64,000 nt of DNA, from the NCBI GenBank assembly GCA_000004985.1, contig GG738847.1. One strand, given 5' to 3'. Below are positions 27,334 through 63,592 of this stretch, piece after piece. The stretch comes from Naegleria gruberi. Its lineage: Eukaryota. Each line of letters begins with the position of its first letter. The stretch's first letter is position 1. A program made the position numbers and the translations under genes. A model generated the notes under the pieces. It did no database searches. It was not told the origin of the DNA and saw only the letters and a program-made list of their open reading frames with translations.

Positions 27334-28541
27334 TCTTTTTGATTTTGTTTCTTTCGTATTGCATCTCTCGCTATTCGATAGGTATTGGTGGATGTGATAA
27401 TAGTTTAGGATGGACCTGTCAGTTATAGATGATTTCAATAAATTGGGACATTTCATCAACCATCTTTCTGAACGCTTTGGAAAAACGACATGTTTTTGAT
27501 GGGACAAAATTGACAAGTTGACACATAGCAAGTATGATAACAAATTAGTGATTTGCCTAGTTGAGTTTTAGAGGATGTAGTGAGCTTTATTGGATTGTTG
27601 CATTTTGATTCTGGAATCCAGAAGAATCTTGTTTCGATTTTTCCTTAAGAAAAAAAGGTTTCGTCGCTTCATTTACAGGATGTGTATCCGAAAGGTTGAG
27701 TTGTAAAAGAACATGTTTTGTTGAAGGATGATTTCTCAAGTTTCATTCACTAGTCCAATATGAAATCTTTGAAACTGTCATCTGTAGGTCAGTTTCTTAA
27801 TGTTTATTCAAACCTTTCCAATGAAAAAAATGTAAAAATCAACAATTTAAACACATGTTATTTTTGATTAATAGTGACATTGCCTGTTATTGTGGAATTG
27901 GTAGAATAATCCAATAATTGAAGTGTTGATTTAGAAGTTGTAAACTAAAGTACAACAATTCACACCCATCACAAACTACTGCATTCTTCCATTACAATCA
28001 TTGATGAGTGGAAAGTTGTACATTTCTGAGTGTTTGATTTTTCAATAATTGTAAAACAATAATGTTATTGGATAACACAACAATTTCTCCTCTTGATTCA
28101 TTCTCATGCAGTATTGCACTAAGAGAGGTAAAACTTTTCAAACTTCACTTGTTTGTGTTGAATGAATTGTAGATATCGAACAATGAAATTAATTTTTTTA
28201 AAACTGTCTCTCTGTGTAATCCATTTCCAATACTGAAAACTAATTATTGAATTATCAATAATTCATCATCTCCAAAGAAAATGTGATTGACTTGAGTCAT
28301 TGTTATAACCAACAATTAAAAGAGACGTTTCAAACCATTGAAGTGAGGGTGTTAAATGTTGAATTTCAACGAAGAAAGGGGAGACACTTCACCAATCAAC
28401 AAAATTGCTGTAAAGTTGACAACAAGTGTCTACTGTCATCTTATCACAAACTAGAAAAAAAAAACTCAATACTTGATCAACGCAAATCTTCACACAGTTC
28501 ACATAAATTGATTGCAATATTTTGTAACCCATCATCACACA

Positions 28542-30359
28542 ATGAGTAACAATAATTCTGAAGATATTGCTGCTTCAAGTTTTGCCAATAGAAAGGCTCT
28601 ATTCCAAAACCTACAGAGCAATCCAAGTAATAGTAGCACAACTACCAAATCTACTACTACTCAATCTTCCACTTCCACTACTACCACTGGTAAATTACCT
28701 GCATTCAATCCGATCAATAAATCATCGACACCAAGCAACTCGTCATCTACTACCTCCAGCACAACTCCCGCCAATTCTAATACAGTAGTCACCAACAACA
28801 CAAGTGGCAGTGGAGGAGGTTCGAGCCAATTTAGGGAAGCTTTGAAAGGATTGAGTGGTGCAGCTGGAGGTAATCCACTGTTTGCTGGTGGTTTTGTGAA
28901 GAGTACAACAACAACTGCAACCACCAGTTTGCCAACTTATAAACCATCAACACCGAGAGGTAATAATAATAACAGTGGTGTTGTAAATTCGGTGAGTGAA
29001 AAGAAGGAACCACCTAAATTACCACCACGTAGAGGATCTGGTATTGGATCAAACAATACAAGCACTGCTACACTCACATCAGGTGGTAGTAATAATAATA
29101 ATAATAATTTGCAAACAGCAACAACAACAACAACTAGTCAACCTCCTCCTGCTTTGCCTCCTAGAAAACTTTCACAAAAGAAAGATGAACCACCACAAAT
29201 ACCAATTGTTACTAAGCAACAAGTTGTCGTAGAGGAAGAACCAATTGTTGAGGAGGAAATTCATCACGAAGAAGAAGAGGAAGACGAGGAAGAAGTTATT
29301 CAAGTACGTGATAGTATTCGACATGAAAGTGATGACGAGGATGAGTCAGACTCGGAGGAAAGTTCTACACCTTCTACACCAAGTGGAACATCATCTTCTA
29401 CTACATCAATTAACAATAACAATAATTCACTTCCACAAACATTGACCATTCAGAGTACTCCACCTCCTCTACCAAAGAAAACACCAAGTCAAGAAACACC
29501 AATTGTTGATAGTTATTCCATCACATTACATAATGCTACACAATCTTTGAACAACAACAAATCAAATCAGAATGATGACGAAGATCCAACAGCAAATCTA
29601 CCAAAGGGATGGACAGCCTACTTTGACCCTGGTCGTCAGGCCCACTATTACCACAATGAATTTACTGGAAAAACAACATGGAAGAAGCCTCCATCCGATG
29701 TTATTGTCTCCTCTTCATCATCTACTTCTGCAACAACAACAAAGGAAGAAGAACAATTAGAAGATGGATGGACAGCCTATTTCGACTCTGGTAGACAAGC
29801 CTACTACTATCATCACGAACAGACTGGTAAAACTACATGGAAGAAACCAATCAAGCAACAACAACAACCAAAGGTTTCTCCTCGCAAGCAAACTCCACCT
29901 CCAACTAGTACTACCACTTCTGCTGTACAACAACAACAAACTTCTCCACAGAAACAAACACCTCCAGTTGTCCCAACTAGAAAACTCTCACAAAAGAAGG
30001 ATGATGTTGCTCAGGAATCAACAACGCAACAACCTCCTTCTATTCCTCCTGTAAAACCAACTCGTCCTGCTACCAAGAGTATTATTGAGAATAATCCTCC
30101 TCCAGTTGTTGTTGTCGAGAGCAAACTTCCATCATTACCACCTGCAAAACCAATTAGAAAGGAAACAAATTCTCCAACAACAACTCAAGGAGATTCATCT
30201 GCTCCACCTCTTCCTCAGGAAAACCACTCAACAAGGCAACACCCCCACCACAAATTCCAACAGGAAAACCATCAAGAAATCCTTTGGAATCTTCTGCAAA
30301 GAATGATCATCGTCAATCGACAGTCATTAGGGAAGATGTCATGTTGCAACCACAATTAA
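28542..30359 (+). CDS. N-terminal segment (frame 0) of a probable single WW-domain-myosin gene: Ser/Thr/Asn-rich, two WW domains, and repeated Pro-rich motifs.
   Basis: ATG at 28542 (MSNNNSEDIAASSFANRKALF). WW domains are LPKGWTAYFDPGRQAHYYHNEFTGKTTWKKP and LEDGWTAYFDSGRQAYYYHHEQTGKTTWKKP. PPxxP motifs: PPPALPPRKLSQKK, TPPVVPTRKLSQKK, PPAKPIRKE. The ORF runs on in frame 0 to a TAA at 30359 and overlaps the downstream myosin ORF, which sits in the -1 frame. The frame switch is best explained by a 1-nt error at the C5 run at 30242-30246. Confidence 0.6.
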   Translation: MSNNNSEDIAASSFANRKALFQNLQSNPSNSSTTTKSTTTQSSTSTTTTGKLPAFNPINKSSTPSNSSSTTSSTTPANSNTVVTNNTSGSGGGSSQFREALKGLSGAAGGNPLFAGGFVKSTTTTATTSLPTYKPSTPRGNNNNSGVVNSVSEKKEPPKLPPRRGSGIGSNNTSTATLTSGGSNNNNNNLQTATTTTTSQPPPALPPRKLSQKKDEPPQIPIVTKQQVVVEEEPIVEEEIHHEEEEEDEEEVIQVRDSIRHESDDEDESDSEESSTPSTPSGTSSSTTSINNNNNSLPQTLTIQSTPPPLPKKTPSQETPIVDSYSITLHNATQSLNNNKSNQNDDEDPTANLPKGWTAYFDPGRQAHYYHNEFTGKTTWKKPPSDVIVSSSSSTSATTTKEEEQLEDGWTAYFDSGRQAYYYHHEQTGKTTWKKPIKQQQQPKVSPRKQTPPPTSTTTSAVQQQQTSPQKQTPPVVPTRKLSQKKDDVAQESTTQQPPSIPPVKPTRPATKSIIENNPPPVVVVESKLPSLPPAKPIRKETNSPTTTQGDSSAPPLPQENHSTRQHPHHKFQQENHQEILWNLLQRMIIVNRQSLGKMSCCNHN

Positions 30360-33300
30360 TGCCATCTCTTCCAGATGAAGTTGGATTTTCTAGAAAGTCC
30401 ATCTCACGTGATCGTTATCAACCAATCAACTCTGCATATCAACAAGATTTCCGTGTTCGTAGATTGGAAGATCGTGAAATGTGTGACGATTTAACATTGC
30501 TCCTTTCACAAAGTTCAATGAAATCAAAGAAATCCGAGCAAATGGTGGTTCCACAAAAGACTGAAATTACAGAAATTGATTTGACCAACATTTTGGCCAA
30601 TCGTTATTATCAAAATGAAATTTACACATGTGTTGGTCCTGCCATTCTCTCAATCAATCCATATAAGGCTGTAAAGGGTCTATACAGTAATGAAACAAAG
30701 GCTCTCTTCCACTCTCACATTCCATACGAGTTGGCTCCTCATATTTATTCACTTGCTGAGGATGCTTATCGTACATTGTTGGAACATGCCACTGCTAACA
30801 AGCCAACCTCCACTCATGTCACAAGAGCTAGACCTGCCATTACTGCTGTGTCATCTTCTTCTGCTCACTCTAAAAAGATGCCACCTCCTCCACCTCCTGG
30901 TAAACCAATCAATAAGGAAGCTGATTTGGATGATGATACATTCATTATTAATGATTTCAGTATTTCAGATGGTATTGGTGTTGGACAAGCAATTATTATT
31001 CAAGGTGAATCTGGTTCTGGTAAGACACTAGCCAGCAGAATTATCATGGAATACTTGGCTGCTGTTTCAATTTCTGGATTGGAAACTCAAAGAATCAAGG
31101 ATTCAATTCTTCAAAGTAATCCACTCTTGGAAAGTTTTGGTAATGCCAAGACTCTTCGTAACAACAACTCTTCTCGTTTCGGTAAATTTACCAACTTGTA
31201 TTTTAACTTTAAGGGCCAACTCATGGGAGGTGAGCTCACAACCATTCTCCTCGAAAAGGCCAGAGTTGTCAAGAGAAGACTTGGAGAACGTAATTTCCAT
31301 ATCTTTTACCAATTGTTATCTGATGATTATATTAGAAAACAACTCAATCTTGGTTTCCCAGAAGAGTACAATTACCTCAACAATAATGTTATCAATATTA
31401 ACGAAGTTGATGACAAGTCAGAATTTGAAACAACCAAACGTGCCATGGATTTATTGGACATGAGTGTTCCAGAACAAATGGCTGTTTTCAAGATTGTTGC
31501 TGCCATTTTGCAATTGGGTAATATTACCTTCACAGCCATTGAAGATCCTGAGGAGAGAAAGAGAAGAAACATCGCTCCTGGTGTTGAAGCTTGTGATGTT
31601 TCTAATGAAGCTTCATTGAAATTGGTTGCCAACACTCTCCAAATTGATGCTGAATTCTTGAGAAGATCAATGATTATCAGAGTTATCAAGACTGTTGGTT
31701 CTCCAATGCCAATTGAACAAACTCAATCAGTGGAACAAGCTGAATTCAACAGAGATACTCTCGCCAAGAATATCTATGAACGTTTGTTCTTGTGGTTGGT
31801 CAAGAGAGTCAACAGAGCATTGAGAGTTCCTGACTATGAAGATTTTGTTGCCAAGAAGAATTCTGAAACTTACTACAATATTGGTATCTTGGATATTTAT
31901 GGTTTTGAAATCTATGACAAGAATATTGGAACAGGAAAGATTGTTGATCAAGATGAAGCATCCAATCAAGGCAAACTCAAGAACGGCTTTGAACAATTGT
32001 GTATCAACTTTGTCAATGAAAAGATTCAAAGTGGTGTTCAAAGATCCATCAAGAAGGAACAAGAAGACATTCAAAAGGAAATTTATGGAGATGACTTTAA
32101 GCCAACTCTTGCCTCTACTCAAGAGAGAAACAAGAGATTCGACTCTGATGCTGCTATTCAAATGATTGCTGGCAAGCCAATCAGTGTCTTTTCATTGTTG
32201 GATGAAGAATCCATGTTCCCTAATGGTAATGATGTTAACTATGTTCAAAAGATGAAGACCAACATCAAACATCCATACTTTAAGATTCCAAGAATTGCAG
32301 AACCAACAGAATTTGAATTGGAACACTTTGCAGCTCTCGTCAAGTATAACACTGCAGATGGATGGGTTGACAAAAATCGTGACACTTTACTCGCTGAAAT
32401 GCTCTACACTATGCAAAATACAAAGGACCACTTGCTTATGGCTCTCTTCCCTAAGAATGAACAAGCTAATGATGTTCTCTCTAAAAAGCCAGCCAATGCA
32501 GGAACCAAACTTCAACAAACAACTGCTGAAAAGTTCTTGAGAGATGTCAGCAAGTTGATGAATCAATTGAGTTCATGCAGCTTGAAACATCACCACATTA
32601 GATGTATCATTCCAAACTATGAAGGAAGAGCTGATGATTTCCAAAAGGACGTTGTTAATCACCAAGTTAGATATTTGGGTATTTTAGACACTGTCCTCTC
32701 GAGAAAAGCCGATGATTTGGGATCCAATGTGACTGGTTACAGCATTAAGATTCCGTACGATACCTTCCTTGAAAGATACAAGCTTCTCTGTCCTGAAACA
32801 TTCCCATATTGGGAAACTTTCATTACCAACAAGTATGGTCCTGTTGAGGAATTCACTATTGAACACAAGAAGGAAGCAGTCCATCAAATTTTGAGCCAAG
32901 AACATATTGGTATGACCAATCCACAAGATTTCTTCTTGGGTAGAGGTAATGTCTTGTTGGCCTCTCCAGTTCAACTCTTCCAATTGGATGAAATGATCAG
33001 AGAACAAAAACATGAAATGGCTAGAAAGATTCAAAACTCCTTCAGAAGATACAGAAAGAAGAGAGCTGGAAAGATGGAAGAAATGATGAAGAAGGCTATC
33101 AAGACAACTGAACCAACCAAGCAAAAGGAAGCTCCTGAAGAAATCAGAATTAGACATGACGGTTTCAGAACATCCAACTTTGGTGAAACAAAGAAACGTG
33201 TCTTGATCACTGGTAGTGACAGAAGAAATATTTTCCTCTTGGATACTACAAGCTCATCTTCAGAGTTTGAACAATTGAGAAAGATTGCCATTAGAGATAT

Positions 33301-35959
33301 CAAGAAGATTTACATTTCACCATACTCTGATAATTACATGATTTTCAAGTTGGACATGGATGAAGGTGATGAATTGGTAGAACTAGATAACAAGTGGGAA
33401 TTTTTGGAAGAATTTAACAAGCTTATTGAATCAACTGCCTCTAACTTTAAGGGTGAACATGTTCCAAGAGTTGAAGTTACCAAGGACATTAGTATCCTCA
33501 ATCATCAAAAGGACAAGAACACTGGTACTCAAAATTTATTGGTCAGATTTATTCCATCTGCCTACAATACCAAGAAGACTGTTACCACTGAATGCTATGC
33601 TGATGAATTTGATAATAGACTCTTCATTGTCAACACCTTCACTCAAGCTGATATTTACAATCAAAGAAAGTTGAGAAGAAAGGCCTCACTCTATGCCAAG
33701 CAAGATCAAAACAGAGATTACTTGAGAATGCAAAACAGTGAATTGATGCAACTCTTAAAGAAGGATTATGATGACTCCAAAGTTCTATTCTCTGGTGTCG
33801 TTTCCAAGTATAACAAGAGATTCAAGAAGCAAGACAGAATTTTCATGGTCACCGATAAGGCCATTTATAATATTGATCCAAGTGGTGGTTACCTCATCAA
33901 TAGACGTGTTCCAATTGGCCAAGTAACCTCTGTCACTGTCTCACCTTACACTGATAACTTCTTTGTTGTTGATCATCCAGATCAAGATATTTTGAGTGAA
34001 AGTGCCAAGAAGACTGAAATTTTGGAATCCATTTTGGAAAGCTTCCAAAATGCTACCAATCAATTGTTACCGGTCAAGGTCACTACCAACTATTACATTA
34101 ACTTGGCCAAGAAGAATACCAAGCGTGTCGCTATTTCATGGATTATTGAACCAGAAAATCAAACACAATTCTCAGTTTCTACACTTGTTCCAAATACTGC
34201 TGGTGGAGCTGATGTTCATGTTGTTTCTGAAGTTGATAACGATAATGACAAGTCAATGAATGATTTGGCTGTTAGACAATCCTTCCAACGTAGATCAGTT
34301 CGTGGTAAGATGGTTAAGAATGGTGATATGGATGAGGTTGATTTGAATGACGTCTTTGGTGGTTTGAAGGTTCGTAGAAAGGACTCTCTCCTCGTCTGGT
34401 TCCAAGGTGATTATTTGAACTTTAAGGACAATCCAAAATTCATCGAAATGGTCAAGAAGCACGATCCAGAATGGAATGGACAAGTTCTCTTCTCTAACCT
34501 AATGACTAAAGTCAATAAGAGATTCAGAACTCAACCTAGAAAGGTTGTAGTTACACCAAATTACATTTACACTCTCGATGATGAAAAGTTACACTTTAAC
34601 AGAATTACTCCAATCAAGGATTTGAGTGGTATTTCTCTCAGTACTATGAGAGATGCCTTCTTTGTTGTCCACTGCCCAACTGATCACGATTTATTTGCAT
34701 CTTGTAAGAAGAAGACTGAATTAGTTTCTGTTATTTGTGATGCCTTCAAAGATAAGACTGGTATGGATCTCCCAGTTCACGTAGAAGATAAATTCGTCTA
34801 CAAACCAAGTACAGATGTTAAAGGTGTTAAAACAATTGAATTTAGACATGATCCAACCACCAAGGTTCCAATCCTTACTCCAACCAAGTTGGGTTGTCTC
34901 ATTCAAGTTAACAATTCTGATCCTGAAAAGGTTAAACAAAACTTACCAACTGCCAAACAACAAAAACCAGCTGCAACTCCACAACTCAAGTTATATGAAG
35001 GTTCTGATGAAAGAGGTATTCAAGATAAGATGGATTCCATCTATACAGGAAGAAAGGGACGTAATAGAAGATCTCTCCTTCGTGAATATCTTGGTGACTA
35101 TTTGAGATTGGAAGGTACACAAAGAATGAAGAAGGTTTTCGATAGAAATGGTGATACTGAATTAATCTTCTCTGGACAAGTTCTCAAATATAACAAGAAC
35201 TTTAAGAAGCAACATCGTTTATTGGTTGTAACAGACAAGAATGTTTACAATATTGATGAACAAGAATTCAAGATTAAGAGAAAGATTCCACTTGAAGAAA
35301 TTACAGGTGTCTCTGTTTCTCCATTCGACGACAATGTATTTGTTATGCACTGTCCAACTAGTGGTGACTATTTGTTGGAAGATGAAAAGAAGACTGAAAT
35401 TATTTCTGCTCTCCAAAATGCAAGACTCAGACACTTGAAACAACCATTGAAGATTAATGTTGATGACCAATTTAACTTTGCTCCAAACTCTTCATCTACC
35501 ATGCCAGTTACTTTCATTAGTGATGATCACTGCAAGGATACTTGGGCTGAGAATAGAGCTAATGCATTGGTTGTTCACGTAAAGAGACAAGAACCTGGTG
35601 TAGTATTGGAAGCTGCCTATCTCTATTTGAATGAAGAATCTAAACCAATTGAAGTTAAATCAACACCAATTCTTATCAAATTGAAGAAGAGATGGACCTA
35701 CAAGTTGCAAATTCGTTTCTATGTCAATGAATACTTGGCAGGATGTGAATTCCACGAAAAGATTGATACTGTGTCTTCGAGACTTGAATTTGTATCCAAA
35801 GTTGTTGAACTGGAACCAAAAGAAGAACGTTATGTTATTACCCTTCCTGAAAGAAAGGTAATTTATTCATTGCTTTCCAAAACCAGAGTCAAGTGCAAGC
35901 TAGTTGATCCAAGTGGTAAAGTTCTCATGGCTGTTCGTTTTGTTTATGATATTCAATAA
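30284..35959 (+). CDS. Unconventional myosin, class-I-like. The head has GESGSGKT P-loop, NNNSSRFGKF switch I and DIYGFE switch II. One IQ motif follows, then a tail of 3-4 tandem TH1-like (PH-like) modules. This is probably the C-terminal continuation of the upstream WW-domain ORF.
   Basis: Frame-2 ORF is open from about 30175 to the TAA at 35957-35959. The track start at 30284 is a TTG. The first in-frame ATG (30338) is still upstream of the earlier ORF's stop, so the two ORFs cannot be separate genes. The motor begins TEIDLTNILANRYYQNEIYTCVGPAILSINPYK. IQ motif: ARKIQNSFRRYRKKR. TH1-like repeats: VLFSGVVSKYNKRFKKQDRIFMVTDKAIYNID..VSPYTDNFFVV; VLFSNLMTKVNKRFRTQPRKVVVTPNYIYTLD..FFVVHCP; LIFSGQVLKYNKNFKKQHRLLVVTDKNVYNID..VSVSPFDDNVFVMHCP. 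Confidence 0.85.
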   Translation: MESSAKNDHRQSTVIREDVMLQPQLMPSLPDEVGFSRKSISRDRYQPINSAYQQDFRVRRLEDREMCDDLTLLLSQSSMKSKKSEQMVVPQKTEITEIDLTNILANRYYQNEIYTCVGPAILSINPYKAVKGLYSNETKALFHSHIPYELAPHIYSLAEDAYRTLLEHATANKPTSTHVTRARPAITAVSSSSAHSKKMPPPPPPGKPINKEADLDDDTFIINDFSISDGIGVGQAIIIQGESGSGKTLASRIIMEYLAAVSISGLETQRIKDSILQSNPLLESFGNAKTLRNNNSSRFGKFTNLYFNFKGQLMGGELTTILLEKARVVKRRLGERNFHIFYQLLSDDYIRKQLNLGFPEEYNYLNNNVININEVDDKSEFETTKRAMDLLDMSVPEQMAVFKIVAAILQLGNITFTAIEDPEERKRRNIAPGVEACDVSNEASLKLVANTLQIDAEFLRRSMIIRVIKTVGSPMPIEQTQSVEQAEFNRDTLAKNIYERLFLWLVKRVNRALRVPDYEDFVAKKNSETYYNIGILDIYGFEIYDKNIGTGKIVDQDEASNQGKLKNGFEQLCINFVNEKIQSGVQRSIKKEQEDIQKEIYGDDFKPTLASTQERNKRFDSDAAIQMIAGKPISVFSLLDEESMFPNGNDVNYVQKMKTNIKHPYFKIPRIAEPTEFELEHFAALVKYNTADGWVDKNRDTLLAEMLYTMQNTKDHLLMALFPKNEQANDVLSKKPANAGTKLQQTTAEKFLRDVSKLMNQLSSCSLKHHHIRCIIPNYEGRADDFQKDVVNHQVRYLGILDTVLSRKADDLGSNVTGYSIKIPYDTFLERYKLLCPETFPYWETFITNKYGPVEEFTIEHKKEAVHQILSQEHIGMTNPQDFFLGRGNVLLASPVQLFQLDEMIREQKHEMARKIQNSFRRYRKKRAGKMEEMMKKAIKTTEPTKQKEAPEEIRIRHDGFRTSNFGETKKRVLITGSDRRNIFLLDTTSSSSEFEQLRKIAIRDIKKIYISPYSDNYMIFKLDMDEGDELVELDNKWEFLEEFNKLIESTASNFKGEHVPRVEVTKDISILNHQKDKNTGTQNLLVRFIPSAYNTKKTVTTECYADEFDNRLFIVNTFTQADIYNQRKLRRKASLYAKQDQNRDYLRMQNSELMQLLKKDYDDSKVLFSGVVSKYNKRFKKQDRIFMVTDKAIYNIDPSGGYLINRRVPIGQVTSVTVSPYTDNFFVVDHPDQDILSESAKKTEILESILESFQNATNQLLPVKVTTNYYINLAKKNTKRVAISWIIEPENQTQFSVSTLVPNTAGGADVHVVSEVDNDNDKSMNDLAVRQSFQRRSVRGKMVKNGDMDEVDLNDVFGGLKVRRKDSLLVWFQGDYLNFKDNPKFIEMVKKHDPEWNGQVLFSNLMTKVNKRFRTQPRKVVVTPNYIYTLDDEKLHFNRITPIKDLSGISLSTMRDAFFVVHCPTDHDLFASCKKKTELVSVICDAFKDKTGMDLPVHVEDKFVYKPSTDVKGVKTIEFRHDPTTKVPILTPTKLGCLIQVNNSDPEKVKQNLPTAKQQKPAATPQLKLYEGSDERGIQDKMDSIYTGRKGRNRRSLLREYLGDYLRLEGTQRMKKVFDRNGDTELIFSGQVLKYNKNFKKQHRLLVVTDKNVYNIDEQEFKIKRKIPLEEITGVSVSPFDDNVFVMHCPTSGDYLLEDEKKTEIISALQNARLRHLKQPLKINVDDQFNFAPNSSSTMPVTFISDDHCKDTWAENRANALVVHVKRQEPGVVLEAAYLYLNEESKPIEVKSTPILIKLKKRWTYKLQIRFYVNEYLAGCEFHEKIDTVSSRLEFVSKVVELEPKEERYVITLPERKVIYSLLSKTRVKCKLVDPSGKVLMAVRFVYDIQ

Positions 35960-36433: not shown

Positions 36434-37744
36434 TTAAAAAGACAAGTCAATCTTTTTCGAGTAAAATTGTTTGTACCACCTTCTCAACTTCATCACTGGC
36501 CCATCACCCTTCACCAAACTCGGTGTTCTCTTATAAATCTTATTCTCCCAAACTGTGATATCATTCTGCCACTGAGCTACCCAATTTCCCACAACATACC
36601 AAACTAATAGTCGAGGAATTTTCTTCTCTGCATACGCAACAAAGCCAACATCCAGATTTGTTTTGCTCTTTGGAGAATGTGTATGGAATAGATAGATTCT
36701 GCCAAAACTTCCATCAAATCTGAAAAGTGCAATTCCTGCAGGACCAAATAATTCAATTCGAGCATTTACGGTCGTGGAGGTGAGTTTCTTACCGAAAATT
36801 TCGAGACATGCCTTGTTAGTAAAGTAGGCAATATGAGGATCTGAATCTGAGAGTTTAAATTCTGCTTGATGTATAATTTGGACGAAAGGAACCTGAATTG
36901 AACGACCAAATATTGATCTAGGTCCACTCCATGGCAAAACCATTTGGCCATGCAAGGGTTGGAAATGTTGAAAATCTGCCGAGTTCTCAGCAAAATCTTG
37001 AATATTCATTCTAATATCTTCATATGAATAATTCCCAAAATGGTAAAATTTGTCCATGTCCAAATCTTGTGGATTCAACAATGGATACTGAGGTGGTAAA
37101 CCTTCCTTCTCTGAATGGAACCACACCAAAATCATACCATACTTCTCTTCACAATACCACGATCGAGTGTGAGCATTCTTTGGAATTGTTTCATTACAAT
37201 TTTCTGAATGTTGACATGAGCTCTTGTCACAATTATTTGGAATTTTGACACATTGACCATCTCTATCAAATTCCCATAAATGAAATGGACATTGAATGTT
37301 ATTTCCAATAACCTTACCTTCCACTCCTAAATTACTTCCCAAATGTGGACAATAAGCATCTAAAACTCCGACAGAACCATCAAATCCTCGAAACACAACC
37401 ATGTCCTCGCCAAAGTAGTGGACAAGTTTGGAGCTACCTTTTGATAACTCATTTGAGAAACAAATTCTGAACCAACCGTTTGGAAACTGATCAATAAACG
37501 TACTTTCTCTAAATTTAGATGATGCATTTCTATTCGATTCTGCTGAATGTTTTTGATCTTTCGTTTTGAAATCATACCACTTGTTGGCTATCAGGACTGC
37601 CAATAGTACAAGATTGAGAAGTAAACTAACTGCAATAAGCGTTTCAGTTTCAAAACTAAACATTTTTTTTAACTTTCTCAAATTGACTAGACGAAACTGA
37701 TTGTACTCACGTGTTATTGAAGTGAAAATAGAGAAAGGATGCAT
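36434..37744 (-). CDS. Rieske [2Fe-2S] non-heme iron oxygenase with an N-terminal membrane anchor. Neverland/DAF-36-like (cholesterol 7-desaturase family) candidate.
   Basis: Rieske ligands CPHLGSNLGVEGKV...NIQCPFHLWEFDRDGQC (CxH...CxxH). The motif GWFRICFSNELSKG..LVHYFGEDMVVFRGFDGSVGVLDAYCPH is characteristic of the Neverland family. N-terminal TM TLIAVSLLLNLVLLAVLIANKWY. The likely true start is the second ATG at 37663 (AAAAAAAATG context); the ORF is otherwise open from 37744. Confidence 0.75.
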   Translation of the reverse strand: MHPFSIFTSITREYNQFRLVNLRKLKKMFSFETETLIAVSLLLNLVLLAVLIANKWYDFKTKDQKHSAESNRNASSKFRESTFIDQFPNGWFRICFSNELSKGSSKLVHYFGEDMVVFRGFDGSVGVLDAYCPHLGSNLGVEGKVIGNNIQCPFHLWEFDRDGQCVKIPNNCDKSSCQHSENCNETIPKNAHTRSWYCEEKYGMILVWFHSEKEGLPPQYPLLNPQDLDMDKFYHFGNYSYEDIRMNIQDFAENSADFQHFQPLHGQMVLPWSGPRSIFGRSIQVPFVQIIHQAEFKLSDSDPHIAYFTNKACLEIFGKKLTSTTVNARIELFGPAGIALFRFDGSFGRIYLFHTHSPKSKTNLDVGFVAYAEKKIPRLLVWYVVGNWVAQWQNDITVWENKIYKRTPSLVKGDGPVMKLRRWYKQFYSKKIDLSF

Positions 37745-39154: not shown

Positions 39155-39612
39155 TAAATCAAAATCCAAAAACAACAAATAAATTATTTTTCTCCGTAAG
39201 ATATAATTAAGGTGTTTGGTTAGTTCGTTCCATAATAATTCGATAGTCGCAGGAGATAATAAATAAGGTACCTTGGTGAATTATCTCTTCTCAACAATGA
39301 ATAAGAAGTGAAAAGTGTTAAATATATTGATTCTTGGTTCCTTAAATCCAAACTTGGTATTGTAAATTTACAAAATACGATACGAATAAACGTGGCAGGT
39401 AGAGTGGAATATTTATTTCAGGAAAAGGCAACCAATCACAATCCTCCAACCTTTTTTAGTTCGAGAAAAATCCTTTTTGCAGCCAACTAAAAAAATTCTG
39501 TTGGCGAGAATTGCAATTAACAGAAACAACAAAAAAAACTTGTTCACAAGGTGCTCGGCTACACTTCAACAATTTTCATCATCTTTTGAAGTGGATACCT
39601 AAAATACAATAC

Positions 39613-42600
39613 ATGACAGCAGCTGTCAATAATCGAAAGAAAATGAAGTGTTCAAATAAGAGACGACAACAGTTGACCACCACCATCATGATGTTCATGG
39701 TGATGGTGATTGGAATTATTTTACTCACCAAAAATGTTCAAAGTTTATTACCACGATATAAAATTGAAGTGCTATCCGGAAATCCATACATGTCCACAGC
39801 ACTCTATGATGGAATTATGGCCACAGATGCAATTCTCAACCTTCCAAGAAACGTACTCCTCTACAATGATGAATTGTACATATCCGATACCTTTAATCAC
39901 ATGATTAGAAAGGTTTCGAAAAATGGAACACTCACCACATTGGTAGGAGTTGGTGCTGCTGGTTCAAATGATGATGATGGTTTGCTTGGAATTGATACTC
40001 AACTAAACAATCCGAATGGTTTATCCATTTCTCCAAATGGTGAATTATTGTTTATTGCTGATACTGATAACAAATTGATTCGAGTTTTGAATATGAAAAC
40101 AATGATTTGTAATGTATTTAAAATGTTTACATCGAGTGGGGTGTTAGATACCTTGACGAAACCAGTTGGTGTTTCCATTACAAGTAATTGGAATATTTAC
40201 ATAACCGATGACAAGTATGTGAAAAAGGTTAATTATTATACAAGAGTAGTTACAATTATTGCAGGAGGTATGTTATATTGTTATTGTTTTTAATACGAAA
40301 CTATTGAAATTTGTTTTTTTTTGTTCTGATTGACTAAAAAGGTGGAAGTGGTAGTTATAAAGATAATGTCGTTCCAACAACCATTTCAATCACAAGTCCT
40401 AAACTCATTCATACCATTCCTTACACTCCTGATTCTACTCTTGTAGTTTTTACTGATGCCACAACTGCTAAATTTATTATAGATACAGAAAGTTTACAAT
40501 CAACCACAAAAACAGGACTTGTAGGAGGGTAAGTTTTAATCATCAATTTATTGAGTACTAGAGTAATATATTTTGAAAAATAGTTCAAATATTCCAGCAA
40601 TTTTTCCATTTTCCACCACAACATTTTACTATTCTTTGGGAAATGGGATTTTTAACTTGGAAAGTGGAATTAATACTCCTAAATCTGCAACTACTGGTGG
40701 TGATGCTGGAAAGTATAGTGTAACTAATATGGCGTATTCTTATTTTAACACTTCTTATGGATTACATGGAAATAGTTCAGTGATTTATATTGCAGATTCG
40801 GCTAATTATTGTATTAGAAAGTATGATATTGCGAATAATTCTGTATCAACTGTTGCAGGTTTCAAATATCAACCTTCTTTTGAAGGAGTTTATGCTTTAT
40901 CTGTTTATGCAGATTTGAAAATTCAAAAGTTAACCGTGACCTACAAGGATGAAATTATTTATCTTGACACTAACAACAGAGTTAGAATGATTACAGCCAA
41001 TGGAAGAATCAAAACACTCATTGGATCTGAGTATACATCCAAATATCCAGTTTGTGTTTCAACATCTATTGCTTTGGAATGTAGGGCAACTAACGCGATT
41101 GATATTATGAGCGTTGGAGATTCTCTAATTCTCTCAACTTTAAAATTATTCAGTTATGATTTGGCAAGCATTTCAGGAACATCTACCATTACCCAACAAG
41201 GTACTGAACTAGTAGGTACTTTCTCTCTAAGAGCAATGAATGGCTCATCAGGTGCTGTCGTATATTTCCTAAATAATGCCAATCAATTGTTAAAAAAATC
41301 TTTAACTGGTTTGGAAACAGTTGTGAAAGGATCATTATCTGCATCAGATTTCAATATTGTAAATATTGATACTGATTTCGCTAGAATTTGCTATATTGAG
41401 AGTGGAATTATCACTTGCTTTAATGAGACTGATTTAAGTTCAATTGTTCTCCCAATGCCATCTGGAGAAACCAAGTTCACAAGCGTTGCACTCACTAGTA
41501 CTACTGTCTATGCATCAACAAGTAATAGAATCTATGCCTATTCAGTTTCTGATTATTCAACTGCTTACCTAATTGCAGGTTCAAAGCCAGTTAATGTGAA
41601 TGGACAAACTTTTGATTATAGTGGGTACAACAGTGATTACATTTTGGCAACTAGTGCTATTTTGAGTGATATCAGTAATTTGCAAGTCTCTTCTTCTAAT
41701 GGAAATATCTATTTTGTGAGTGGTGGTACTTTGATTAGAAGAATTGCCAATGGATTTGTTTCTACAGTTGCTGGTATTTCACCTCTCCATACAGAAGGTA
41801 TAACACCAATGGCAATTGCAAGAGATTCAGCTAAAAAGATCACCTATTTCATTGACAGTAATACACATGTTAAAATGATGGATGAAGCCAGTGGAATTAT
41901 TAGTCCACTTACTTTACCAATTAAACCAAGTCCTGATCCACAAAATATTACATTACCATTAACATTTTTAAGAGCTCCACCAAAGAATGCAGGTCAATTA
42001 TTGACTTATTCCTCCTATGATGGTTTATTATATCTTGCAGATTATTGCAGAATTATTTCCATCAATGTTACATCTGCTTCATACAAGCTTGTAACTGGTA
42101 CTGTGTGTGGAGATAGTGCTGACAATATTTTAGCAATCAATTCATTCATTCAAACACCAAGTTCCATGACAGTCGACTCTAAAACTGGAGATTTATACTT
42201 TACGTTTGGAACAAAGATTTTGAAAATTGAAAAGAAAACTGGTTTATTAACGACATTATATGGCAGTACTGGTAAAATTGGAACTGTTGTGAATGGAATA
42301 ATTTCCAAAACTTCTCTCCTCACCAACATTACAAGTTTGGTCGTGTCTGATGATATTATTTACTTTGCAGATATTACTCGTAGCGTTAGACAAATAGCTC
42401 TATCAAACAGTAATTTGACAACTTTGGTTACCATGGCTGCGGTCACTGAAAAGATGCTTTCAATTTCACTCGATAAGAATGGTGACATTTTCATTCTCGA
42501 TACCTATACTTACTTAATTAGCAAGTACATTAAAAGTTCAGGTGGGGTCCCCAAAGAGGTAGCAGGAAAACAATTTGGTAAAGGATTCAATGGAAGATAC

Positions 42601-44089
42601 AATGCTCAGGCAACGAATTCCAATTTGAGAAATTTTATTTCCTCTGTCAACATTGACAATGGAATAATGTTTACTGAAATTGCAGATAAGACTGGTGGTC
42701 TCATTAGAAAAATAACAGCTCAATGTGATGGAAATTCAACCCTGGACTCTAGTGGAGGTAGTTGTGTCTGTAATGATGGATACACTGGAGATTCTTGCAA
42801 TGTATTCGTTTGTTATGGTTTAACTGCAACTAGTTCAGAAGTATGCTCAGGAAATGGATCGTGTATTGATGTGAATGTGTGTAAATGTAGGGATGGATTC
42901 GAAGGTTCCTCATGTAATATTGTTAAGGCTGCAAATGTCACAACAGGAGATTCATTGGGTGTGATTTTACCTGCTGTTCTCGTTCCAATATTGGTTATTT
43001 TGATTATTATTGTAATTATAATTGTAGTGGTAATCATTGTGTTTGCCACAAAAAAGAAGAAGAAGAAGGATAAGGGATTGGAAGAAACCACAGATTTTGA
43101 TGAAGTTCCAATGAGTGATTTGCCATCTGACATGTCTGTCATTTTGAGTAGCAGTTTGACAAGAAGTGTTTCATCATCAACCAATGAAGAAGAAAATCTC
43201 TTTACAAGATATCAAGATATTGTCAAGATTGGACAGGGAGCATTCGGTAGTGTTTTTAAAGTTAGAGATACCAAAGACGGAGACAAGATCAAAGCTGTTA
43301 AAGTTTTGAAATTTAATTCTGTCAGTGATTTGAATATGATTATGAAAGAAGGTGCTCAATTAACAAACGCCAAACACAACCACATTCTCAAAGTCAATGA
43401 TTATTTCATTACTAACGACAATTTACTTTGTATTGATATGGACTATTATGAAAAGGGAGATTTGTCTCAATTTACCAAAACTGATTGTCCAGAACATATT
43501 GTAAAACAAATTCTCTATCAATTATGTGATGCTTTGAGTTATGTTCATGGAACTCTTTCCATGATTCACAGAGATATCAAGCCAACTAACATTTTTGTAA
43601 AGGAATATGATGGAACAAATGTCAGTGTCATTCTTGCTGATTTTGGTTTAGCCAAACAAGCTCAAGAATCAGCTGCAAATTCATATGCTGGTACTCCACT
43701 TTGTAAGTTTTTAATTTTCCTTTTTATTTACAAATATTTCAATTAATTTTACAATTTTAATTTTTTTAATATTTCAATTGTTAATTAATAATATTTCAGA
43801 TATGAGTCCTGAACTTGGATTAGGAGGAAAATATTATCCAAACTCTGATACTTATTCACTAGGTGTTACAATTTATCAAATAATGACAAAGGACCTTACC
43901 ACATCAATCAGTCACTTGTTGTTGAATGATCCACAAAATGCTCAATCGAAATTGAGAGACAAGATGAAACAATCTAAACTGGGTTACTCAGATCAGCTTA
44001 TTGACTTGATTATTAGAATGTTGGACAAGGACAGTTTAACTAGACCTAATGCTGCAGACATTCTTTCAGATTCGTATTTCAGAAGATAA
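39613..44089 (+). CDS. Four-exon gene for a ~1400-aa receptor-like protein kinase. It has a signal anchor, NHL-repeat beta-propeller region(s), EGF-like modules, a single TM, and a cytoplasmic Ser/Thr-type kinase domain.
   Basis: Exon 1 is 39613 (ATG, MTAAVNNRKK; the ORF is open from 39511) to 40267, with donor g|GTATGT. Exon 2 is 40342-40528 (GGSGSYKDNVVPTT...TGLVGG-), with donor gg|GTAAGT. Exon 3 is 40584-43702, ending ..SYAGTPL-, with donor t|GTAAGT. Exon 4 is 43800-44089, giving the junction GTPL-Y-MSPELGLGGKYY. Phases are consistent, and intron 2 (55 nt) is anchored to the ORF track. NHL-like repeats: LYISDTFNHMIRKV...LLFIADTDNKLIRVLN. EGF: CVCNDGYTGDSCN...CKCRDGFEGSSCN. TM: ILPAVLVPILVILIIIVIIIVVVIIVF followed by KKKKKK. 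Kinase motifs: IGQGAFGSVFKV, AVKVL, HRDIKPTNIFV, DFGLAK, GTPLYMSPE. Confidence 0.8.
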
Positions 44090-56094: not shown

Positions 56095-56437
56095 TTATAT
56101 ATGATGATAGAAAATTGGGTCACGTTTCAAAGCTTTTCTATCAATCAAGGACCAAATAAGAGTAATTTCTCTTTTAATATTATCATAAGACCATGAAATT
56201 GGAAAAACTATTCTCTCAATATTGGCCCAAAATTGAAGGGATGGTCTCAAGGCTTCAACACGAGATGATTGACCTTGAATTGTAAGATAAGCAATTATAA
56301 ACGTAGTTCCTTCGAATTTGTTCCATAATTCGGATAATGGTTTGANNNNNNNNNNNNNNNNNNNNNNNNNNNNNNNNNNNNNNNNNNNNNNNNNNCGAAT
56401 TTGTCCATAATTCGGATAATGGTTTGATTAAAAGCAT
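56095..56437 (-). CDS. Putative small minus-strand CDS, interrupted by the 50-nt assembly gap. The lower-coordinate part encodes ...KPLSELWNKFEGTTFIIAYLTIQGQSSRVEALRPSLQFWANIERIVFPISWSYDNIKREITLIWSLIDRKALKRDPIFYHHI*. Function unknown.
   Basis: Minus-strand frame is open from ATG ~56437 (MLLIKPLSELW) into the gap. The sequence on the two sides of the gap is a near-exact duplicate (cgaatttgt(t)ccataattcggataatggtttga), so the gap is probably a contig-overlap artefact. A possible upstream exon MDPITRCLKLPEKPT with a GTAAAA donor lies at ~56690. Weak model. Confidence 0.3.
56346..56395. other. Assembly gap (50 N) flanked by a ~33-bp direct duplication. Likely a scaffolding join of overlapping contig ends.
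   Basis: N-run 56346-56395. Left flank is ...cgaatttgttccataattcggataatggtttga and right flank is cgaatttgtccataattcggataatggtttga... Confidence 0.9.
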
Positions 56438-59700: not shown

Positions 59701-60600
59701 CTACATTTGAACCAAATGAGGAAATACTTGAAGAATCTAATAAATTGTTACAATCAACATTTAAGGATGTGAAATGATTTGGAGAGGTCATTTGGAAAAG
59801 TAATCCATTTCCTTCATTATTGAAATGTACATTGGACAATTGAGTCATGCAATCTTCTCCATAAAATCCATCATTGCAAGTATTACAATTAGTTCCATTC
59901 CAATAACCGTTAGTTTCGTCTTGGAAACAAGTACAGAAACCATAGTCATCACATGTACCATGTGAATTGCATTTCAATGTAGCATTACACTTTTCAATAA
60001 CAGTACAATTAATTCCAGAGTATGGAATTTTACACTTGTCACAATTTGTTCCAACAAAGTGACCATCAATATCATTATCAAAACATGAACAGTTATTTGG
60101 AGCATTACATTTACCAACTCCATTGCAAACTTTCTTTGAATTCGATGAAATTCCATAGCAGATTGGATACTGACATATTGGCCCTTCGTAACCTTCCTCA
60201 CAAAAACATCCAACAGTTGACATGTTGAATTTACATGTACCATGTTGAGAACAAACTTTTGGATCTTTTTGTGGTAACCACATATCAACTCCTGCCTTAC
60301 ATAAAATCGTTTCACATTGTGGACCTATTGCTCTTCCACTTTCGGATTCCAAACAAGTACATTGATTAGCACCTGTGCATTTTCCTTGACCATTCGTACA
60401 AGCTTTCGAGTCATTATTGGATTTAAAACCAAAGCATGAATGAGAGGAACAAGTTTCTCCATCATATCCATCTAGACATTTGCATGTGTCCAAGGTTATG
60501 CATTGGCCATGGGAGGAACAAACTGAAGAATTGTAAAATGGAATTCCAAAACAAGATGGGAAATTACACTTAGCCCCAAACCATTTAGGATTACAAGAAC
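56732..60600 (-). CDS. 3' portion (>=1290 aa) of a large extracellular/type I membrane protein. It has multiple EGF-like / laminin-EGF-like repeats, a long S/T/N-rich region, a C-terminal TM (LMWLLMLLVLIPLTALLIAVIIWFVV) and a short cytoplasmic tail. The 5' end is lost in the assembly gap.
   Basis: ORF 56732-60493 (track M is a TTG). The same frame stays open upstream to the gap edge (..CNPKWFGAKCNFPSCFGIPFYNSSVCSSHGQCITLDTCKCLDGYDGETCSSHSCFG..), so the gene continues into 60601-63071. EGF patterns: CxC..G..G..C. The plus-strand ORFs inside are antisense noise. Confidence 0.75.
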
Positions 60601-63071
60601 NNNNNNNNNNNNNNNNNNNNNNNNNNNNNNNNNNNNNNNNNNNNNNNNNNNNNNNNNNNNNNNNNNNNNNNNNNNNNNNNNNNNNNNNNNNNNNNNNNNN
60701 NNNNNNNNNNNNNNNNNNNNNNNNNNNNNNNNNNNNNNNNNNNNNNNNNNNNNNNNNNNNNNNNNNNNNNNNNNNNNNNNNNNNNNNNNNNNNNNNNNNN
60801 NNNNNNNNNNNNNNNNNNNNNNNNNNNNNNNNNNNNNNNNNNNNNNNNNNNNNNNNNNNNNNNNNNNNNNNNNNNNNNNNNNNNNNNNNNNNNNNNNNNN
60901 NNNNNNNNNNNNNNNNNNNNNNNNNNNNNNNNNNNNNNNNNNNNNNNNNNNNNNNNNNNNNNNNNNNNNNNNNNNNNNNNNNNNNNNNNNNNNNNNNNNN
61001 NNNNNNNNNNNNNNNNNNNNNNNNNNNNNNNNNNNNNNNNNNNNNNNNNNNNNNNNNNNNNNNNNNNNNNNNNNNNNNNNNNNNNNNNNNNNNNNNNNNN
61101 NNNNNNNNNNNNNNNNNNNNNNNNNNNNNNNNNNNNNNNNNNNNNNNNNNNNNNNNNNNNNNNNNNNNNNNNNNNNNNNNNNNNNNNNNNNNNNNNNNNN
61201 NNNNNNNNNNNNNNNNNNNNNNNNNNNNNNNNNNNNNNNNNNNNNNNNNNNNNNNNNNNNNNNNNNNNNNNNNNNNNNNNNNNNNNNNNNNNNNNNNNNN
61301 NNNNNNNNNNNNNNNNNNNNNNNNNNNNNNNNNNNNNNNNNNNNNNNNNNNNNNNNNNNNNNNNNNNNNNNNNNNNNNNNNNNNNNNNNNNNNNNNNNNN
61401 NNNNNNNNNNNNNNNNNNNNNNNNNNNNNNNNNNNNNNNNNNNNNNNNNNNNNNNNNNNNNNNNNNNNNNNNNNNNNNNNNNNNNNNNNNNNNNNNNNNN
61501 NNNNNNNNNNNNNNNNNNNNNNNNNNNNNNNNNNNNNNNNNNNNNNNNNNNNNNNNNNNNNNNNNNNNNNNNNNNNNNNNNNNNNNNNNNNNNNNNNNNN
61601 NNNNNNNNNNNNNNNNNNNNNNNNNNNNNNNNNNNNNNNNNNNNNNNNNNNNNNNNNNNNNNNNNNNNNNNNNNNNNNNNNNNNNNNNNNNNNNNNNNNN
61701 NNNNNNNNNNNNNNNNNNNNNNNNNNNNNNNNNNNNNNNNNNNNNNNNNNNNNNNNNNNNNNNNNNNNNNNNNNNNNNNNNNNNNNNNNNNNNNNNNNNN
61801 NNNNNNNNNNNNNNNNNNNNNNNNNNNNNNNNNNNNNNNNNNNNNNNNNNNNNNNNNNNNNNNNNNNNNNNNNNNNNNNNNNNNNNNNNNNNNNNNNNNN
61901 NNNNNNNNNNNNNNNNNNNNNNNNNNNNNNNNNNNNNNNNNNNNNNNNNNNNNNNNNNNNNNNNNNNNNNNNNNNNNNNNNNNNNNNNNNNNNNNNNNNN
62001 NNNNNNNNNNNNNNNNNNNNNNNNNNNNNNNNNNNNNNNNNNNNNNNNNNNNNNNNNNNNNNNNNNNNNNNNNNNNNNNNNNNNNNNNNNNNNNNNNNNN
62101 NNNNNNNNNNNNNNNNNNNNNNNNNNNNNNNNNNNNNNNNNNNNNNNNNNNNNNNNNNNNNNNNNNNNNNNNNNNNNNNNNNNNNNNNNNNNNNNNNNNN
62201 NNNNNNNNNNNNNNNNNNNNNNNNNNNNNNNNNNNNNNNNNNNNNNNNNNNNNNNNNNNNNNNNNNNNNNNNNNNNNNNNNNNNNNNNNNNNNNNNNNNN
62301 NNNNNNNNNNNNNNNNNNNNNNNNNNNNNNNNNNNNNNNNNNNNNNNNNNNNNNNNNNNNNNNNNNNNNNNNNNNNNNNNNNNNNNNNNNNNNNNNNNNN
62401 NNNNNNNNNNNNNNNNNNNNNNNNNNNNNNNNNNNNNNNNNNNNNNNNNNNNNNNNNNNNNNNNNNNNNNNNNNNNNNNNNNNNNNNNNNNNNNNNNNNN
62501 NNNNNNNNNNNNNNNNNNNNNNNNNNNNNNNNNNNNNNNNNNNNNNNNNNNNNNNNNNNNNNNNNNNNNNNNNNNNNNNNNNNNNNNNNNNNNNNNNNNN
62601 NNNNNNNNNNNNNNNNNNNNNNNNNNNNNNNNNNNNNNNNNNNNNNNNNNNNNNNNNNNNNNNNNNNNNNNNNNNNNNNNNNNNNNNNNNNNNNNNNNNN
62701 NNNNNNNNNNNNNNNNNNNNNNNNNNNNNNNNNNNNNNNNNNNNNNNNNNNNNNNNNNNNNNNNNNNNNNNNNNNNNNNNNNNNNNNNNNNNNNNNNNNN
62801 NNNNNNNNNNNNNNNNNNNNNNNNNNNNNNNNNNNNNNNNNNNNNNNNNNNNNNNNNNNNNNNNNNNNNNNNNNNNNNNNNNNNNNNNNNNNNNNNNNNN
62901 NNNNNNNNNNNNNNNNNNNNNNNNNNNNNNNNNNNNNNNNNNNNNNNNNNNNNNNNNNNNNNNNNNNNNNNNNNNNNNNNNNNNNNNNNNNNNNNNNNNN
63001 NNNNNNNNNNNNNNNNNNNNNNNNNNNNNNNNNNNNNNNNNNNNNNNNNNNNNNNNNNNNNNNNNNNNNNN
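60601..63071. other. Assembly gap (2471 N).
   Basis: Continuous N-run. It removes the 5' part of the EGF-repeat gene and any sequence between it and the subtelomere. Confidence 0.95.
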
Positions 63072-63592
63072 GGTACTGTATCAATTTCATAATGATCTGT
63101 ATAGTAGATGTCATTGTCTCATCCCTGTATGTATCAAGTGGATCAGCCATGTACCATGAATGATATGGATGATCTTCAAAATCATATAGATATATTTAAT
63201 TATCATGTATAGATGTATTGGAAGTGAATTGAAGTGGTATAGATTTCTATCTTCAATGTTAGTATAGGTCAGTTGACAAGTTGAATAGTAAATATCCTGA
63301 AATGATACCAAAGTATTTGAAATTGATATATATCGTTATAAACATGATTTATAAGATGATATATTGATTTGAAATGATTTTGAAATGTTTTCATTGATAT
63401 TCTAATTGTCTAATCTATTATATGAAATTAACTTATATAAGTCATTATAATGATGTAATATTATGTTATTATATGATTATATATTCAATTTGGAGTATAT
63501 TGATATATAATATATTGATTTATAATGAGTATTTATTGAGATAATTAATTAAGATGAATAAAAGTCAAAATGTTGGGTCTGACCTTAGTCGT
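63072..63592. repeat. Subtelomeric AT-rich sequence with degenerate short repeats (tgatatat / atgattt / tatatga variants); telomere-associated sequence.
   Basis: ~85% AT with no ORFs. It is rich in imperfect tandem/interspersed motifs and sits immediately internal to the telomeric tract. Confidence 0.5.

Follow-up and report, generated by a model that had tools for sequence, protein, structure and literature searches.

A Neverland-like Rieske oxygenase of Naegleria gruberi from a sister clade of the animal enzymes is a candidate sterol C7(8)-desaturase

Which enzyme allows the amoeba Naegleria gruberi to convert scavenged cholesterol into 7-dehydrocholesterol (7DHC)? In published feeding of N. 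gruberi with U-13C-glucose, cholesterol remained without label (1.06%), the label in ergosterol rose to 4.02% and that in cholesta-5,7-dienol lay in between (2.46%); because of this intermediate label, part of the 7DHC was ascribed to exogenous cholesterol, and 7DHC was concluded to be of dual origin, one part arising from scavenged cholesterol via a cholesterol C7-desaturase (Zhou 2018, PMC6136796). The same study named as candidate a DAF-36-like protein encoded by both Naegleria genomes, tabulated as NF0030090 in N. fowleri and XP_002682415 in N. gruberi and mutually 60% identical (PMC6136796). Here, we analyze a 64,000-nucleotide stretch of N. gruberi contig GG738847.1 (the window), in which positions 36434–37744 on the minus strand encode a Rieske oxygenase, and ask what this protein does. 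We conclude that it very probably acts on the steroid nucleus, and that its likeliest identity, which we hold to be probable, is the C7(8)-desaturase behind the published cholesterol-to-7DHC conversion in Naegleria. A modestly new point is that the enzyme appears to belong to a broad sister clade of the animal enzymes, so that its function is not to be assumed.

That the candidate gene takes cholesterol to 7DHC has already been proposed in print (Zhou 2018; Herman 2021; PMC8172173). Herman 2021 reported two BLAST matches per N. fowleri strain for a DES7 query, listed a 'Rieske cholesterol C7(8)-desaturase' among the genes up-regulated in N. fowleri after passage through mice, noted the N. gruberi orthologue, termed the protein an orthologue of Tetrahymena DES7 and proposed the N. 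fowleri enzyme as a drug target (PMC8296547), and a 2021 review states that Naegleria 'most probably' employs a Rieske-type C7-desaturase (PMC8172173). A sequence-only reading of this locus had likewise suggested sterol 7-desaturation; judged from the sequence this is still the best functional guess, but it is not novel, as both the DAF-36-like candidate and the conversion had been published for Naegleria.

The interval is one unbroken open reading frame (ORF) of 436 codons plus stop, with an ATG start, a stop codon at 36434–36436 and a single exon in N. gruberi, and homologues align with it end to end. Its product is 100% identical to N. gruberi XP_002682583.1 / EFC49839.1 / UniProt D2V148, and the next protein match after N. 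gruberi itself comes from N. lovaniensis (61% identity). By this complete identity the source is Naegleria gruberi (Heterolobosea, Discoba) and no dictyostelid; the earlier premise of a dictyostelid genome is therefore mistaken, and the argument that such an enzyme would be unexpected in dictyostelids is moot. The gene is intact and already annotated: XP_002682583.1 is titled 'Rieske non-heme iron oxygenase family protein [Naegleria gruberi]', and the automatic UniProt/UniRef name of D2V148 is 'cholesterol 7-desaturase'. Three protein searches returned one N. gruberi and one N. lovaniensis protein only with this combination of Rieske and KshA_C domains.

The start codon is ambiguous from sequence, with both Met1 (436 aa) and Met28 (409 aa; codon at 37661–37663, minus strand) as candidates. 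RefSeq XP_002682583.1 begins at Met28, and Met1 is used by a metagenome gene call on the contig of a near-identical environmental strain. The start region spans 37661–37744 (minus strand), and the Met1 ORF is directly preceded in frame by the three codons ATG-ATT-TAA. Residue numbers below refer to the 436-aa form unless stated.

We found the description of the product as a membrane-anchored Rieske oxygenase to be borne out. A Pfam scan identified a Rieske [2Fe-2S] domain (PF00355, aa 91–171, E 2.8e-20; 37232–37474, minus strand) followed by a catalytic KshA_C domain (PF19298, aa 207–428, E 2.3e-19; 36461–37126, minus strand), the same pair that occurs in all named animal Neverland (Nvd) proteins. 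Ahead of both lies a hydrophobic helix, TETLIAVSLLLNLVLLAVLIANK (aa 33–55; 37580–37648, minus strand), which hydropathy and the AlphaFold model predict to be a membrane anchor: the Kyte-Doolittle peak over a 19-residue stretch falls at aa 35–53 (2.76), and residues 4–54 of the 409-aa form are modeled as a single long helix. Every peptide block quoted in the sequence-only reading is present in the translation.

All seven metal ligands are present. The Rieske cluster motif reads C132-P-H134...C152-P-F-H155 (CxHx17Cx2H; 37280–37351, minus strand), and the mononuclear iron motif reads E253-NSA-D257-FQ-H260-FQPL-H265, or (D/E)x3Dx2Hx4H (36950–36988, minus strand). The carboxylate of the 2-His-1-carboxylate triad would be supplied by Asp395 (36560–36562, minus strand), which pairs with D304 of Mycobacterium tuberculosis KshA in the 2zyl alignment; with this residue and the E253-x3-D257-x2-H260-x4-H265 spacing, the C-terminal non-heme iron site passed the check that the sequence-only reading had suggested. 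Across an alignment of 86 homologues spanning both clades described below, the four Rieske ligands and Asp395 (D368 in the 409-aa numbering) are invariant, and both histidines, the glutamate and the first aspartate of the iron motif are at least 90% conserved.

The AlphaFold2 model is confident (pLDDT 94, pTM 0.88), and its best Foldseek matches in the Protein Data Bank (PDB) are the 3-ketosteroid hydroxylase structures KshA 4qdf/4qdc/2zyl (E 1e-24 to 1e-22, about 360–375 aligned columns), followed by SxtT/GxtA; the structural matches next in rank to KshA act on saxitoxin, dicamba and caffeine. Homology is far above chance: 285 homologues were recovered at E ≤ 1e-5, and an exhaustive HMMER search gave 402 clusters (50% identity) at E ≤ 1e-30. 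Just past the Rieske domain, at the place where others keep the Tyr of 'IPY', lies a 14-aa Cys-rich insertion, NNCDKSSCQHSENC (aa 170–183; 37196–37237, minus strand; delimited by alignment columns, pLDDT 67–68). It is specific to N. gruberi and occurs also in the near-identical environmental strain.

To place the protein within its family, we took as references the trimmed sequences of C. elegans DAF-36 and of Neverland from Drosophila, Bombyx and zebrafish given in a published supplement (PMC6170570), together with full-length congeners, and used them to gather named animal orthologues. The set was widened by the Naegleria matches, by HMMER representatives and by protists and fungi that carry names; it does not include Tetrahymena DES7, and its outgroup consists of KshA segments taken from the PDB alignments. 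The trees are of a simple kind (neighbour-joining, Kimura distances, bootstrap), one of them built on an L-INS-i alignment with 300 replicates. The N. gruberi protein is 27–34% identical to animal Neverland proteins (115–190 bits), 36–44% to protist and Myxococcota proteins (260–320 bits) and 48–50% to proteins of bdelloid rotifers (333–386 bits).

The trees resolve two clades. All animals and the four validated references fall in clade A (96–99% bootstrap), along with Capsaspora, Balamuthia and Diplonema. The N. gruberi protein falls in the sister clade B (87–91%), which among eukaryotes also holds bdelloid rotifers, Physarum, foraminifera, Cymbomonas, protists of the MMETSP collection and Trypanoplasma, as well as the fungi Mortierella, chytrids and Hyaloraphidium; its bacterial members are monophyletic (90%) and branch from within the eukaryotes. 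Naegleria and the bdelloid rotifers are joined at 87–93%. Clades A and B together split from KshA and another bacterial group at 94–97%, and the N. gruberi protein does not group with KshA. Against a clade-B profile from which Naegleria and rotifers had been left out it scores 455 bits, compared with 302 bits against clade A. The clades also differ in motifs around the metal ligands, with ENGADxAHL and QFERD in A and ENSxDxQHF and QWxND in B. The earlier description of the protein as Neverland/DAF-36-like thus stands for architecture and ligands but not for its position in the neighbour-joining tree, and calling its peptide block family-specific was an overstatement, because the protein lies outside the clade of validated Neverland/DAF-36 enzymes. 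In short, it is Neverland-like in every feature readable from sequence, yet in the neighbour-joining trees it lies outside Neverland/DAF-36 proper.

Both clades include Discoba as well as Amoebozoa, represented by Diplonema and Balamuthia in A and by Naegleria, Trypanoplasma and Physarum in B, a distribution suggesting that A and B are old paralogues, although gene transfer could give the same pattern. DES7 orthologues are reported in the literature only from oligohymenophorean ciliates, Salpingoeca and Capsaspora, and from this distribution and the clade-A place of Capsaspora we infer that Tetrahymena DES7 is a clade-A enzyme. When two sequences suspected to be ciliate-like were used to seed a protein search, the matches included Capsaspora, Balamuthia, Diplonema, Trypanoplasma and fungi, and no ciliate name.

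Several members of clade B are of interest in their own right. The bdelloids Adineta, Rotaria and Didymodactylos carry clade-B genes (among P0007–P0014) on contigs of up to 2.3 Mb, apart from the Neverland genes of other animals in the tree, and no rotifer protein appeared among the top matches to the animal-type Neverland profile; the bdelloid genes look like horizontal acquisitions from a protist. Six protist versions (P0022, P0028, P0053, P0058, P0068 and P0069) are 650–745 aa long, with a hydrophobic N-terminal extension of about 330 aa ahead of the Rieske domain; this extension has no Pfam match, and the oxygenase may here be fused to a multi-pass membrane module.

The bacterial members provide genomic context. 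Scanning one genome per species, we found clade-B-type relatives in 154 bacterial species genomes. Named hosts include Enhygromyxa salina, Plesiocystis pacifica, Nannocystis and Sandaracinus, and metagenome-assembled genomes that bear the labels Binatia, Holophagales, Latescibacterota, Gemmatimonadota and 'Poriferihabitaceae' are among the hosts too. Cholesterol production has been published for E. salina, and the phylum Myxococcota has been described as sterol-producing. A 251-kb metagenomic contig (L005) has several sterol genes in a row about 1 kb away from its Rieske gene, namely FA_hydroxylase, 3beta-HSD, ERG4/24, ERG2, oxidosqualene cyclase, a P450 and another 3beta-HSD. At two Binatia loci (L035 and L050), ERG4/24, a CYP51-like P450 and a cyclase lie 1–9 kb from the Rieske gene. 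This adjacency is occasional, but it recurs in unrelated genomes, by our estimate more often than chance would give; no conserved partner gene was found beside the bacterial homologues. The nesting of the bacterial group, mostly Myxococcota, within a eukaryotic clade suggests inter-domain transfer.

Taken together, the intact architecture, ligands and anchor, the KshA-like fold, the sister position to DAF-36/Neverland and the activity of the organism favor sterol 7-desaturation, and the three bacterial clade-B loci that adjoin sterol-synthesis clusters favor a sterol substrate. In the mechanism we propose, a membrane-anchored enzyme, probably of the endoplasmic reticulum (ER), would take scavenged cholesterol to 7DHC by C7(8)-desaturation, with other delta5-sterols from prey or medium probably serving as substrates too, and would thereby feed exogenous sterol into the delta5,7-sterol pool of the amoeba. 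An NAD(P)H-dependent redox partner would reduce the [2Fe-2S] cluster at C132/H134/C152/H155, and the electron would pass to the mononuclear iron (H260/H265/D395) across a subunit interface, as in trimeric KshA-type oxygenases. Oxygen activated at this iron would then take two hydrogens from C7 and C8 of the sterol B ring. We infer these steps from fold and ligands, and likewise the regiochemistry, the ER location, the redox partner and the role of this very protein in carrying the flux; the published evidence for cholesterol-to-7DHC flux in N. gruberi is at the level of the organism, not of the protein.

Several observations weigh against assigning this reaction to this gene. Its position in clade B places it outside the clade of the validated enzymes, and we found no characterized clade-B member. 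The sister relation of A and B rests on the simple neighbour-joining tree, because the protein scores 304 bits against the uncharacterized bacterial group, level with its score against clade A, and these profile scores do not separate the two. No sterol genes lie near the Rieske gene at about 50 of 55 long bacterial loci. In the case of Drosophila pachea Neverland, a few substitutions shifted the substrate from cholesterol to lathosterol. Our literature search found no enzyme assay for this protein, and the support from labelling is only indirect, because Naegleria also makes delta5,7-sterols de novo via ERG2 and ERG3 (PMC6136796). Finally, the accession tabulated by Zhou 2018, XP_002682415, differs from XP_002682583.1 of this gene, and a literature search on the two accessions found nothing on the difference. 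The protein is 59.8–60.8% identical to its N. lovaniensis and N. fowleri-like counterparts, in agreement with the published 60%; the mismatch reflects either an error in the table or a second gene elsewhere on the scaffold.

The most serious competitor to C7(8)-desaturation is a different reaction on a sterol or steroid, namely C5(6)-desaturation of delta7-sterols, C22-desaturation or KshA-like ring hydroxylation, which we regard as unlikely but deserving of attention. The lack of a characterized clade-B enzyme among those we found leaves room for it, as does the ease with which Neverland regiochemistry moved in D. pachea, and the closest structural relative, KshA, is itself a hydroxylase. Zhou 2018 did not identify a Naegleria C22-desaturase (ERG5-type) by homology, though ergosterol is abundant (PMC6136796), and some clade-B genes lie within de novo sterol clusters, a setting with no obvious need for a step that scavenges cholesterol. 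Each specific version nonetheless meets an obstacle: ERG3, the C5-desaturase, is present in Naegleria, several P450s match ERG5/CYP710A queries in the N. fowleri table of Herman 2021 (PMC8296547), and 9-hydroxylated or ring-opened steroids have not been reported. The conversion of cholesterol to 7DHC is the sole N. gruberi sterol activity still lacking an enzyme that would suit a Rieske oxygenase of this kind.

A related and similarly doubtful proposition, slightly weaker in our estimation, is that clade B as a whole is an old, separate family of sterol-modifying Rieske oxygenases and more than 'Neverland in protists'. Its reaction could then be other than C7(8)-desaturation, for example that of the Naegleria C22-desaturase or of a B-ring desaturase of bacterial de novo synthesis. 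Among the clade-B hosts are early-branching fungi and eukaryotes that feed by phagotrophy or predation (Naegleria, Physarum, foraminifera, Trypanoplasma and the phagotrophic green alga Cymbomonas).

Alternatively, the N. gruberi protein could be a true orthologue and full member of the Neverland/DAF-36/DES7 family whose sister-clade position is a tree artefact, a view to which we give rather little credence. Automatic names in UniProt and at JGI ('cholesterol 7-desaturase/dehydrogenase', for the protein and its relatives) and the DES7 orthology stated by Herman 2021 are in line with it, as are the joint support for A+B and the simplicity of the tree method. An artefact is, however, hard to reconcile with the high bootstrap values for each clade separately, with the differing clade motifs and with an identity to animal enzymes of just 27–34%; the presence of Discoba and Amoebozoa on both sides also fits old paralogues, with the caveat on transfer given above.

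A substrate other than a sterol, such as a chlorophyll catabolite of algal prey or an aromatic compound, seems to us quite improbable. Rieske oxygenases are chemically diverse, as the structural matches acting on saxitoxin, dicamba and caffeine illustrate, sterol genes are not nearby in most bacterial relatives, and Naegleria up-regulates Rieske proteins on photosynthetic prey. Those light-induced proteins, however, carry a PAO domain (PF08417), for which the Pfam scan of the 436-aa protein gave no match at E ≤ 0.1. The characterized close relatives (KshA and Neverland/DAF-36) all act on the steroid nucleus, and the three bacterial loci beside sterol clusters are independent of one another.

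Comparison among strains and species bears on whether the gene works at all. Relative to the contig of the near-identical environmental strain, the ORF carries 12 nucleotide differences, 10 synonymous and 2 non-synonymous, the latter both Ala/Val swaps inside the membrane helix; these counts offer a weak indication of purifying selection. In N. lovaniensis and a related Naegleria contig (L009 10001–11394 and L010 4319–5740), an intron of about 95–110 bp precedes the last ~16 codons, and the N. gruberi gene lacks it. One gene call (P0004) overlooks this late intron and so acquires a false C-terminus. The genes flanking the Rieske ORF in the window are ordinary eukaryotic ones, encoding a class-I myosin, a WW-domain protein and an NHL/EGF receptor-like kinase, and the flanking sequence has the same G+C content as the gene, about 36%. 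A scan of the flanking genes over ~10 kb upstream and ~6 kb downstream revealed no sterol, reductase or ferredoxin/redox-partner gene, and no neighbouring gene is shared between Naegleria species within ±10 kb. That the gene is bacterial contamination, a recent dead transfer or a pseudogene, as Myxococcota homologues of about 40% identity and the absence of an intron might hint, is effectively refuted by the intact ORF with all its ligands, the eukaryotic flanks of equal G+C, the orthologues with a spliceosomal intron in N. lovaniensis and other Naegleria-like contigs, the 10:2 substitution counts and the reported up-regulation of the N. fowleri counterpart after mouse passage.

If the C7(8)-desaturase assignment is true, the gene explains how cholesterol of host or prey is channelled into the delta5,7-sterol pool of Naegleria. 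Mammals have no such enzyme, the basis on which the N. fowleri counterpart was put forward as a target for drugs against primary amoebic meningoencephalitis (PMC8296547); as the Naegleria enzyme would form part of a separate, uncharacterized branch, function and inhibitor sensitivity would not simply carry over from insect or nematode Neverland. Clade B would moreover tie together the sterol metabolism of protists, rotifers and myxobacteria, and it bears on the debate over sterol-gene exchange between Myxococcota and eukaryotes.

Elsewhere in the window, an ORF at 28512–35959 (plus strand) encodes a 1891-aa class-I myosin with four stretches matching the TH1 tail-domain profile. A 615-aa ORF with two WW domains lies upstream of it and overlaps it by 76 nt in another frame, and the two may be one spliced gene. 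At 39511–43746 (plus strand), two adjacent ORFs with NHL repeats, teneurin-like EGF domains and a C-terminal protein kinase domain may likewise form one gene of receptor-kinase-like architecture. Runs of N at 56346–56395 (50 bases) and 60601–63071 (2471 bases) are assembly gaps; because of them the G+C content at 60–64 kb appears to be 11–17% with an extreme GC skew, and a listed '884-aa ORF' at 60496–63150 is an artefact of the N run.

How does the N. gruberi protein compare with known Rieske systems? The sequence-only reading had suggested checking it against PAO/CAO-type and bacterial ring-hydroxylating groups, and comparisons with Pfam, PDB and NCBIfam placed it in neither. The light-induced PAO-like proteins share a Rieske domain, a mononuclear iron site and the organism with it, but membership of the PAO/CAO/Tic55/PTC52 group is rejected by the undetected PF08417 and a C-terminal domain of a different family. 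Aromatic ring-hydroxylating dioxygenases match through the Rieske domain alone (17–25 bits against cut-offs of 670–830; PDB matches covering aa 86–180 only). SdmA, a bacterial Rieske sterol C4-methyl oxidase (NF052579), resembles the protein in being a Rieske oxygenase that acts on sterols and is its best NCBIfam match, but at 57.4 bits against a cut-off of 600, over the N-terminal half only, the protein is not a member; bacterial clade-B proteins score 51–58 bits against the same model. The saxitoxin hydroxylases SxtT/GxtA are the second-best structural neighbours (E ~1e-19 to 1e-20) and belong to the same alpha3-type fold class, but they are soluble cyanobacterial enzymes with an alkaloid substrate and 18–20% identity.

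KshA, the oxygenase of bacterial 3-ketosteroid 9alpha-hydroxylase (2zyl, 4qck, 4qdc and 4qdf), is the best solved structure by sequence as well (E 1e-28), has the same ligands and a steroid substrate, and matches in fold at E 1e-24 with a TM score of 0.70–0.75 by target length. It is, however, a soluble, catabolic hydroxylase with a dedicated reductase, KshB, whereas the N. gruberi protein is predicted to be anchored in the membrane, and the scan of the genes flanking it revealed no reductase. With the cholesterol 7-desaturases Neverland/DAF-36 (EC 1.14.19.21), among which a Capsaspora candidate and, according to the literature, Tetrahymena DES7 are counted, it has in common the Rieske and KshA_C domains, the N-terminal anchor, the CxHx16-17Cx2H and (D/E)x3Dx2Hx4H motifs and the Asp ligand. 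The two lineages are sisters in our trees (94–97%), and scavenged cholesterol undergoes the same net reaction in the host. They differ in that the N. gruberi protein falls in clade B, with clade-specific sequence around both iron-ligand motifs, and in the biology of their hosts: insects, nematodes and ciliates with Neverland-type enzymes are sterol-auxotrophic, whereas N. gruberi also makes sterols de novo.

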